DNA from: an uncultured Rickettsiales bacterium
GTDB lineage: Bacteria; Pseudomonadota; Alphaproteobacteria; Rickettsiales; Deianiraeaceae
Direction: 5' to 3'
Length of the DNA: 64,000 nucleotides
Assembly: GCA_946413485.1 (NCBI GenBank)
Contig: CAMKKS010000001.1
Span: forward strand, 4,749-68,748
Under the pieces are notes generated by a model. That model was not told the origin of the DNA. It did not search any database and saw nothing but the letters and a program-made list of their open reading frames with translations. Numbering within the stretch: position 1 is the stretch's first letter; each line of letters begins with the position of its first letter. The translations under genes were made by a program, and so were the position numbers. Below, in pieces: positions 54,866-55,796 of this stretch.

Positions 54866-54894
54866 AAAAAGGTACTTTTAAAAGTACCTTTTAT
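54866..54894 (-). terminator. rho-independent terminator after flagellin gene
   Basis: AAAAGGTAC-TTTTAAAA-GTACCTTTTTT on the minus strand. Confidence 0.7.
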
Positions 54895-54912
54895 CAGTTT
54901 GATTGATTTAAA

Positions 54913-55728
54913 TTAGCCTAAAAGGCTCAAAGCGATTGAATTTTTCTGATTAGCTTGAGCTAAAATTGATGTGCTCATTTGCTGTAAAATCTGTTGAGCT
55001 GTGTAGTTTGCCGTTTCCTCGGCATAATCTACATCTCTAATTCTGGATCTCGCATCTGTGATGTTTGAAATTACATTTTCTTGATTTTCGATTGTTGATT
55101 CTAAACGATTTTGAACAGCACCTAAAGATCCTCGATAAGAGTCGACGTTTGCTATCATTTCGTCAAGCCTTGTAATTGCACCTTGAGAAGCATCAGCTGA
55201 AGTTAAATCCAAAGCTGTTGAAAAATCTGCGATTGATGACATACTTTTCAATCCAAAGTCGATTGTTTGATTAGCGTCAGCACCAACCTGGAATTTGACG
55301 GTTTTATCTTCAGTGAAAAGTTTTTGACCGCCGAATGATGTATCGGTCCCTATTCGAGTAATTTCAGAAGAAAGAGCGTTTATCTCTTCTTGTATAGCCG
55401 TTCTTTGAGAAGTTGAATTTGTTCCGTTTGAAGATTGTAAAGCTAAAACACGCATTCGTTGAAGCATCTCAGTAACTTGATCAAGAGCTCCTTCAGTAGC
55501 TTGTGTCATAGATATTGCATCATTCGCGTTTCTGTTTCCTTGTTTCAAACCGTCAATCTGTGAGGTCATTTTATTTGAAATTTGAAGGCCTGCTGCATCA
55601 TCTTTAGCCGAGTTAATTCTAAAGCCTGAAGACAATTTGTCATAAGATTTGTTCAGAGACTTTGTAGATTTGTTTAATCTGATTTGAGCAGTTAAAGAGG
55701 AAACATTTGTGTTAACATATAAAGCCAT
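54913..55728 (-). CDS. flagellin (short D0-D1 type, 271 aa)
   Basis: N-terminal NTNVSSLTAQ..LSSGFRINSAKDDAAGLQISNKM..GLKQGNRNANDAISMTQATEGAL..MLQRMRVLALQS and C-terminal LGAVQNRLESTIENQ..ARSRIRDVDYAEETANYTAQQILQQ..SILAQANQ..LSLLG are the canonical flagellin termini; AGGAG SD. Confidence 0.9.
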   Translation of the reverse strand: MALYVNTNVSSLTAQIRLNKSTKSLNKSYDKLSSGFRINSAKDDAAGLQISNKMTSQIDGLKQGNRNANDAISMTQATEGALDQVTEMLQRMRVLALQSSNGTNSTSQRTAIQEEINALSSEITRIGTDTSFGGQKLFTEDKTVKFQVGADANQTIDFGLKSMSSIADFSTALDLTSADASQGAITRLDEMIANVDSYRGSLGAVQNRLESTIENQENVISNITDARSRIRDVDYAEETANYTAQQILQQMSTSILAQANQKNSIALSLLG

Positions 55729-55769
55729 TTTGATTCTCCTATCAAGTTATTTTAGAAGTTCTATTTTTA

Positions 55770-55796
55770 TTATCGGCTTTATCGTAAAAAATGTTA
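55770..55796 (-). promoter_or_regulatory. sigma28 (FliA)-type promoter TAAC-N15-GCCGATAA
   Basis: Minus strand GCCGATAA (55777-55770), identical to the enterobacterial sigma28 -10 consensus, with TAAC (55796-55793) 15 nt upstream (consensus TAAA); 41 nt before flagellin ATG. Confidence 0.6.

Follow-up and report, generated by a model that had tools for sequence, protein, structure and literature searches.

The flagellin gene and its phage context

The window analyzed here is a stretch of 64,000 nucleotides from contig CAMKKS010000001.1 (GenBank assembly GCA_946413485.1), and it carries, amid genes of a T4-like phage, a flagellin coding sequence on the minus strand (54913..55728; 271 amino acids, ATG start). 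The original prediction, made from the sequence letters, had described a complete flagellin gene, and this was borne out by Pfam matches at both ends, by PDB matches, and by the predicted fold. Flagellin_N (PF00669) matched residues 5–142 of the 271-amino-acid open reading frame (ORF) over positions 1–138 of the 139 in the profile (E = 2.1e-43), Flagellin_C (PF00700) matched residues 186–270 (E = 1.2e-23), and the C-terminus (...SIALSLLG) fits the LSLL(G/R) motif. In a sequence search of the PDB, residues 2–271 aligned with residues 1–272 of 9oxj (272 amino acids; E = 3.5e-64), and the Shewanella FlaA/FlaB entries (9oxj, 9oxk, and 9lah) matched end to end at ~1e-63. The AlphaFold2 model (pLDDT 78) has helices at residues 9–33, 41–100, 106–129, and 178–270, which include the helical hairpins of D0/D1, and a small β-hairpin at residues 142–160; a D2/D3 domain is absent, and the variable segment comprises ~40 residues. 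For this model Foldseek returned flagellar filament subunits exclusively, with the Pseudomonas aeruginosa filament core and Shewanella FlaA/FlaB as top matches and the Escherichia coli subunit also within their TM-score range (0.72–0.76). Judging from both termini, full-length colinearity, and fold, the protein is a bacterial flagellin of the FliC/FlaA family, and we have hardly any doubt that the gene is a functional, phage-resident one. Its central domain is indeed minimal (D0/D1 only), as had been noted, but this is no peculiarity of the phage, since the cellular homologs have 273–297 amino acids. The phage protein family phrog_16088, labeled as of unknown function in PHROGs, matches the protein at 1.3e-75 and is evidently a flagellin family.

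The gene has its own expression signals. A Shine-Dalgarno sequence AGGAG (55736..55740, minus strand), read from the sequence as predicted, stands 7 nt before the ATG and is kept in all same-species copies. An intrinsic terminator (54858..54892, minus strand), found by consensus scan and folding, starts 20 nt past the stop codon and is made up of a hairpin, with 11 bp in the stem and 4 nt in the loop, and a U-run. The hairpin at 54892-54867 (-11.4 kcal/mol, z = -3.3 against shuffles) has 3 G-C pairs in its stem; the terminator is real, yet moderate rather than strong as had been claimed.

The T4-like context is clear from PHROG and Pfam matches to a gp23-type capsid protein, the gp20 portal, the gp18 sheath, gp15, neck proteins, gp19 tube paralogs, baseplate proteins, the gp21 prohead protease, and the gp17 terminase large subunit (TerL), in agreement with the original prediction. 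The capsid protein shows 60% identity to that of the Vibrio phage Va1 group and 43% to that of the Campylobacter CP220-type phages. The carrier is a T4-like (Straboviridae-type) myovirus, and its lifestyle is presumed to be obligately virulent; no integrase or repressor domain was found among the ~55 ORFs scanned in the window (64 kb of a genome of ~180 kb). Pfam and PHROG scans of the same ORFs detected neither a sigma or anti-sigma domain nor any other flagellar gene, and FliS, FliT, FliD, FlaG, FliE, and Maf from cellular loci, used as phmmer queries, found nothing in the window at E <= 10. A DNA search of 50,697 phage records with the flagellin locus gave no match, and tblastn with the protein found in them short unannotated fragments or prophage-like records at <=51% identity, none of them T4-like; within these records, no cultured relative carries the flagellin gene.

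A public collection has the identical protein in 112 indexed blocks, and on the 22 contigs that were read, which stem from many samples and different assemblers, it is always in the same phage context; two of these contigs, ERZ27291627 k119_679942 (172,566 bp) and ERZ12289774 NODE_41 (178,656 bp) in ENA, are probably near-complete genomes. In L001, the flagellin gene is physically linked to T4 baseplate, tube, protease, and gp23 genes. The GC content at third codon positions (GC3) of the gene is 0.26, which falls among the values of 20 phage genes (0.22 +/- 0.05) and is exceeded by the cellular homologs (0.35–0.51), indicating a long residence in AT-rich phage genomes.

Over their full length, the phage flagellins are under strong purifying selection, as the cellular ones are. 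The ratio of nonsynonymous to synonymous substitution rates (dN/dS) was 0.016 between the window and L002 (dS 0.20), 0.03 between the window and L004, 0.11 between the window and either L007 or L008, 0.16 between L007 and L008, and 0.03 between L010 and L088, compared with 0.06–0.12 for cellular flagellin pairs. At 132 conserved columns, the phage proteins deviate at 7–12, always conservatively, which is at the upper end of the cellular range; these columns were defined by >=95% conservation in 124 cellular sequences, a shallow reference set that makes this a weak test.

The sigma-28 type promoter motif and the repeats beside it

Upstream of the gene, a motif scan located TAAC-N15-GCCGATAA on the minus strand (55796-55770), the end of its -10 element lying 41 nt ahead of the flagellin ATG. 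It is composed of a sigma-28 type -35 element TAAC (55793..55796) and, 15 nt away, a sigma-28 (FliA) type -10 element GCCGATAA (55770..55777) with an invariant GCCGATA core; the -35 element departs by a single base from the consensus (TAAA-N15-GCCGATAA-type). TAA[AC]-N15-GCCGATAA has one match on both strands of the 64 kb where 0.02 are expected, and the full motif is still unique in the window with 1 mismatch allowed, so that the claim of a promoter without counterpart elsewhere in the window held. The octamer GCCGATAA alone occurs twice against 1.0 expected, which is not significant, and the argument for a promoter is therefore built on the full motif, its position relative to the ATG, and its conservation. 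Transcription is predicted to start at ~55763, leaving a 5' untranslated region (UTR) of roughly 35 nt.

Conservation is seen at three levels. Same-species copies have two alleles, TAAC-N15-GCCGATAA and TAAT-N15-GCCGATAT, which differ at the fourth base of the -35 element and the eighth base of the -10 element and leave the GCCGATA core and the spacing unchanged. The lineage with an 83% identical flagellin (L007/L176/L177) has TAAA-N15-GCCGATAT, and the 15-nt spacing is constant across all motif-bearing copies. Between the window and L007, TAA-N16-GCCGATA is kept although dS is 1.2 (saturated) and the flanks are unalignable; because MAFFT mis-registers these two promoters for the latter reason, the motifs were compared by anchoring. 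Our own rough estimate from dS puts the neutral expectation for the 10 retained promoter bases at about 1e-4. Finally, the nearest cellular flagellin genes have TAAA-N15-ACCGATAA (L090), GCCGATAC (L091), and ACCGATAT (L011), that is, a -10 pattern of (A/G)CCGATA(A/C/T), and the cellular loci with the motif hold FleQ, FlaG, FliD, FliS, and Maf; in certain other flagellins of Succinivibrionaceae, its place is taken by a sigma-54-type TGGCAC-N5-TTTCA. The elements, their spacing, and their conservation in orthologs and in the source clade agree with the sigma-28 type promoter of the original prediction, and dependence on FliA is predicted from them.

The cassette is flanked by two repeat families. 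That of CATTACGTTGTTTTTAA has 34 copies in the window against 1.1 expected, and its unit, AAAATACGTWAT followed after about 20 nt by CATTACGTTGTTTTTAA, is found in either orientation and is frequently arrayed (9219-9480, 11551-11729, 22655-22796, 42921-43459, 55800-55916, and 57019-57224). Two such AAAATACGTWAT..N..CATTACGTTGTTTTTAA units (55800..55916, minus strand) lie directly upstream of the sigma-28 promoter, where they form the left boundary of the shared cassette and end 3 nt from the -35 element; the variant L181 has five tandem units upstream of flagellin. The upstream units were considered as terminator hairpins, and this was dropped since shuffled sequences fold just as well (z about -1.1); protein-binding or promoter elements are more likely than hairpins. 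The second family is a perfect 12-nt palindrome, AGTTCTAGAACT, with 12 copies in the window against 0.2 expected (4265, 9331, 25013-25062, 27313, 43049, 43309, 51526-51558, and 54553-54775), and it is probably an operator for a dimeric phage DNA-binding protein. It shares intergenic islands with the AAAATACGTWAT/CATTACGTTGTTTTTAA family and is densest in a 554-nt non-coding stretch past the flagellin terminator, within which repeat counts delimit an island of AGTTCTAGAACT palindromes and CTAGAAC repeats (54517..54790, no strand assigned). The original prediction had the gene bracketed by repeat islands; both families are real and do flank it, but they are intergenic across the whole window and not specific to flagellin. 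Also downstream of flagellin is a 23-nt inverted repeat (54388-54410 / 54477-54499) whose arms, 66 nt apart, are 87% complementary, and a similar string, TTTAACGCGAGATATGAG, stands upstream of the flagellin cassette in L002. Rfam found tRNAs only in the whole window and no known RNA in the 554-nt stretch.

Relatives, hosts, and repeated capture

The protein search returned three tiers, namely the 99% cluster, relatives at 83% and 73–76% identity, and a large set at ~59–66%. All close relatives come from contigs of T4-like phages. L007, L176, and L177 have a sheath protein 88% identical to that of the window and a flagellin 83% identical; in L008 and L178–L180 the sheath is 64%, the portal 68%, and the flagellin 73–76% identical; in L010 and L088 the corresponding values are 49%, 59%, and 66%. 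The flagellin locus differs between the phage lineages, with five genomic positions in all. Structural genes (sheath, portal, and baseplate) surround the gene in L007, L008, and L010. In L002, a 99% identical protein with 17% synonymous difference follows wholly different upstream genes, and similarity to the window starts at the phage repeat unit. The relatives were checked for the gene as the original prediction had proposed, and its view that the gene behaves like a moron is supported by the promoter and terminator of the gene and by its different neighbors in L002, L007, L008, and L010/L088. With these signals, a variable position, host origin, and codon amelioration, it is an auxiliary, host-derived gene of the moron type.

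In L010 and L088, the flagellin start codon comes ~25 nt after a tRNA-Glu gene (9903-9976 and 8958-9031, respectively) that ends the phage tRNA cluster, and no promoter motif was found between the two, which suggests that flagellin is co-transcribed with the tRNAs there. On reading the sequence, no TATAAATA late-type promoter was seen upstream of the window flagellin. This absence and the position after the tRNAs in L010/L088 would fit expression by the host polymerase rather than that of a virion late gene.

Scanning IMG/VR with a profile brought in the viral contigs L098 and L099 (88 and 125 kb), with flagellins 50–53% identical, each of which shares several genes with the window phage; the L099 flagellin shows 62–63% identity to flagellins of Succinivibrionaceae metagenome-assembled genomes. 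Of the other IMG/VR matches, most come from isolate genomes, where they sit at the end of a predicted prophage or close to it.

The phylogeny of the flagellin against host-clade flagellins, also proposed in the original prediction, was run by neighbor joining with 200 bootstraps and placed the phage proteins among those of Aeromonadales. The window, L007, and L008 form a clade with 99% support, and L010/L088 group at 99.5% with P0070 and P0095, whose cellular context was confirmed. A single ancient capture for all phage flagellins was rejected, since their joint monophyly appeared in 0/200 replicates. These separate, supported placements imply at least two host-to-phage captures, and there were probably more, counting L098 and L099. 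The L010 flagellin has a GC3 of 0.49, like that of its cellular group (0.51).

Phage copies are 63–76% identical to the nearest cellular flagellins. The cellular matches examined are in ordinary flagellar loci with FleQ, FlaG, FliD, FliS, FliT, and one to three Maf glycosyltransferases, and the best-named genomes belong to Aeromonadales, with RUG10681 (60%) followed by Succinimonas, Ruminobacter, Anaerobiospirillum, and other Succinivibrionaceae. Homology of the flagellins thus points to a host that is probably a gut or rumen member of Aeromonadales, of the Succinivibrionaceae type, consistent with the flagellated Gram-negative host that had been predicted. In L090, L091, and L092, one to three Maf-type (MptE-like) glycosyltransferase genes come after flagellin, and L091 also has genes for sugar-nucleotide biosynthesis. 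The host filaments are probably glycosylated, and the phage flagellin would depend on this modification or escape it.

Several other genes of the window seem to be accessory. Directly upstream of flagellin, a 382-amino-acid ORF (55907-57055, minus strand) matches phrog_8438, of unknown function, has no Pfam match, and found no PDB match even at E = 10. The window, L187, and L189 have this ORF and L181–L186, L188, and L190 lack it, all with the identical flagellin, which suggests a mobile or dispensable gene. A 272-amino-acid protein (57221-58039, minus strand) has a DGHHR motif and a weak match to ParBc_2 (ParB-like nuclease; E = 0.003), and a homolog 57% identical is found on the distant flagellin-carrying viral contig L099. 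Amid the structural modules are genes for Hsp20 (37197-37796), a DUF285 repeat protein (7634-8296), a TnsA-like endonuclease (2511-2990), and a calcineurin-like phosphoesterase (42258-42863), which are apparently host-derived or accessory; DUF285 also adjoins the cellular flagellar locus L092 and occurs in phage L178, and the TnsA-like endonuclease also occurs in L088. Seven tRNA genes (4759-7075, minus strand) comprise those for Gln, Trp, Asn, Thr, Lys, and Glu and an irregular one (6925-6995), for which ARAGORN gives a two-base anticodon 'tc' and Rfam 31 bits.

Proposed role and comparison with known systems

Flagellin is among the costliest and most immunogenic of bacterial proteins, and it is also a phage receptor. 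In well-studied systems, FliA is freed from FlgM only after completion of the hook-basal body. T4-like phages normally silence and degrade the host chromosome. We propose that host RNA polymerase with FliA (sigma-28) would recognize TAAC-N15-GCCGATAA on the injected phage DNA, so that transcription would be limited to cells with the flagellar program on. Escort and export of the phage flagellin would then fall to the host flagellar type III apparatus, and the protein would polymerize at the filament tip. After host shut-off, the phage copy may in this way maintain the flagellin supply, or switch the isoform, during infection, with a benefit that would be analogous to that of auxiliary genes such as cyanophage psbA. 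To this mechanism as a whole, a FliA-driven, exported, and filament-building flagellin of host derivation that sustains or alters flagellum synthesis, we would give an even chance. A wider explanation, which we put forward tentatively, is that virulent T4-like phages of gut and rumen Succinivibrionaceae repeatedly captured flagellin and use the FliA/FlgM checkpoint so that infected cells that are already motile keep building or re-tipping their flagella once gene expression of the host has collapsed.

Several points weigh against the proposed mechanism. The benefit would hinge on enough filament elongation within one latent period, and host shut-off genes or a phage FliA, FlgM, or FliS could lie in the part of the ~180-kb genome beyond the window. 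The sigma-28 motif is not recognizable upstream of the L008-type and L010/L088-type flagellins, so that FliA control would be a trait of the window/L007 branch and not of all phage flagellins. The bases of the motif also score as a sigma-70-like promoter (TTAACA-17-GATAAT, 10/12), and the repeat unit abutting the -35 element could supply a phage-specific promoter or operator. The phylogeny was obtained by neighbor joining alone, and within its clade the window lineage has the longest branch (67% identity to P0008, compared with 75% for L008), so that some functional drift of this lineage is possible.

Another explanation, the main idea of the original prediction, is that the phage flagellin remodels or masks a receptor, the altered filament surface cutting adsorption of flagellotropic competitors or of the phage's own progeny to infected cells and debris, which would either exclude superinfection or spare the phage adsorptive losses. 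With 63–76% identity to the nearest cellular flagellins, the phage copies are isoforms in their own right, the Maf glycosyltransferases at the host-clade loci make the filament surface a plausible recognition target, and the hosts already hold several flagellin paralogs. Filaments grow only at the distal tip, however, and one lytic cycle would change new tip segments only and leave the old filament exposed; for this reason, exclusion and immune evasion suit a short lytic cycle less than lysogeny. There is also no repressor of host flagellin such as TldR, and no D2/D3 surface domain to vary besides the ~40-residue segment. The same hypothesis was raised for the flagellin-carrying FRphi prophages, where superinfection exclusion was tested and not supported (bioRxiv 10.1101/2023.11.30.569447; PMC13418256). 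We consider receptor masking rather unlikely.

It is also unlikely, on the balance of the promoter evidence, that the sigma-28 motif is a look-alike, with transcription from the sigma-70-type TTAACA-17-GATAAT or from a promoter in the repeat unit, and GCCGATAA a fossil from the capture. This alternative bears solely on the promoter and would go with any of the functional explanations. The 10/12 score, the sister lineages lacking the motif, and the proximity of the repeat units would all fit it. Yet in L007 the sigma-70 -10 element turns into GATATA, losing the key final T, and the sigma-28 -10 element remains GCCGATAT, so that only the sigma-28 reading is conserved. Retention of the motif across a saturated dS and unalignable flanks, species-level alleles that spare the core and spacing, and use of the same motif by the cellular homologs argue in the same direction.

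An improbable alternative is that the protein is not a filament subunit at all but a decoy, which titrates FliS or a flagellin-sensing regulator, or saturates or jams the export gate, and so arrests assembly or rewires the checkpoint. Its C-terminal FliS-binding helix and N-terminal export region are intact, so that it would engage these partners, and the window lineage, with 12 substitutions at otherwise conserved columns, is at the top of the cellular range. However, all of these deviations are conservative, one terminus would suffice for a decoy, and purifying selection extends over the full length, including the D1 polymerization surfaces, with a strength equal to that on cellular filament flagellins. 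The independent captures of full-length genes also favor an ordinary function.

We regard as very improbable a co-opted virion component, that is, a flagellin-derived fiber or decoration protein of the phage particle. The location among sheath, portal, and baseplate genes in L007, L008, and L010 might suggest it, but the position relative to structural genes is not conserved, no late-type promoter was seen upstream, and the identity and constraint pattern are those of cellular flagellins, unlike a newly recruited protein. D0/D1 flagellins, moreover, have unfolded termini and do not polymerize in the cytoplasm. Lastly, an assembly chimera or host contamination, with a bacterial flagellin contig wrongly joined to a phage, as the original prediction had allowed, is practically inconceivable: the GC content of the gene (37% against 29% for the window) is all that favors it, and it is refuted by identical junctions in many independent assemblies, which come from different assemblers and have contigs as long as 178,656 bp, by the phage-like GC3, by the linkage in L001, by phage-specific repeat families on both sides, and by orthologs in at least four related phage lineages.

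Strong selection, multiple capture, and apparent sigma-28 wiring in a presumably lytic lineage point to flagellum synthesis being of importance within the lytic cycle. If the proposed explanation is right, motility maintenance of the infected cell would be a new class of auxiliary phage function, and this would be the first T4-type phage to hand a gene to an alternative sigma factor of its host. The carrier lineage is abundant and presumably obligately lytic, and since the hosts of these gut phages are uncultured, the finding also offers a way to approach them. More speculatively, TLR5-active flagellin might be released from these cells at lysis in the gut.

Among cellular proteins, the window flagellin resembles FlaA/FlaB of Aeromonas caviae and Shewanella oneidensis (9oxj, 9oxk, and 9lah), which are likewise D0/D1-only, with 270–300 amino acids and 48–69% identity, and it shares upstream sigma-28 promoters with the polar flagellins of Aeromonadales and related Gammaproteobacteria. 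Unlike these, it is phage-encoded, has no adjacent flaG, fliD, fliS, or maf, and has its codon usage adapted to a phage of 29% GC, and its predicted 5' UTR is ~35 nt compared with roughly 80–90 nt in L090/L091. Morons and mobile regulatory cassettes of T4-type phages are bounded by promoters and stem-loops. The flagellin cassette is similar to them in its own promoter and terminator, its borders of phage-wide repeats, and its 99% identical protein behind other upstream neighbors in L002, but its repeat units do not fold significantly. In T4-like cyanophages, the host gene psbA replaces a fast-turnover product during lytic infection. By analogy, flagellin seems to parallel psbA in its repeated capture by T4-like phages, purifying selection, codon amelioration, and location in variable regions between core modules; unlike psbA, it encodes a secreted organelle subunit and not a metabolic enzyme, and it is apparently under a host alternative sigma factor instead of phage promoters.

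The closest known system is that of the temperate FRphi-type prophages of Enterobacter and other bacteria, in which fliC_P lies beside tldR (Wiegand et al., bioRxiv 10.1101/2023.11.30.569447; Walker et al., PMC13418256). TldR is a TnpB without nuclease activity that, by way of a guide RNA, represses the fliC promoter of the host, and fliC_P uses the FliA/sigma-28 program according to the authors; FliC_P assembles into host flagella and gives thicker filaments, enhanced motility, lower TLR5 activation, and better gut colonization (bioRxiv 10.1101/2023.11.30.569447; PMC13418256). The gene described here shares with FRphi a full phage flagellin gene, a host FliA/sigma-28-type promoter, and conserved D0/D1 domains with which the host export and assembly machinery should be usable. 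A TldR/TnpB beside flagellin was looked for and rejected, since the neighboring ORFs have no OrfB_IS605/TnpB domain and no window ORF matches the TnpB of L008. The latter, a 431-amino-acid protein of the IS605 family (5197-6492, minus strand), lies between neck-protein and portal genes 4 kb from the L008 flagellin; it was rejected as a TldR because its D-E-D triad is intact relative to ISDra2 TnpB, as in an ordinary IS-element nuclease.

In our literature search, no description was found of flagellin in T4-like or virulent phages, in Succinivibrionaceae phages, or among virome auxiliary genes, and the TldR/FRphi papers are the only ones on phage-encoded flagellin. A phage flagellin under a FliA promoter, which the original prediction had taken as unprecedented, was already known from them in prophages. 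The phages in which flagellin had previously been shown are all temperate; there the gene is of advantage to the lysogen and requires that an RNA-guided repressor act on the copy of the host. The FRphi module of TldR with its guide RNA, a temperate carrier, and D2-D3 divergence is not what we find in the window. FRphi is a temperate siphovirus of Enterobacteriaceae whose D2/D3 differs from that of the host protein and makes the filament thick, and its lysogens benefit; here the carrier is T4-like and presumed obligately virulent, the host clade is Aeromonadales, there is neither TldR with a guide RNA nor D2/D3, and any benefit must fall within the lytic cycle. What is new is therefore the virulent phage, the lack of a repressor, the D0/D1-only flagellin, and the recurrent capture.

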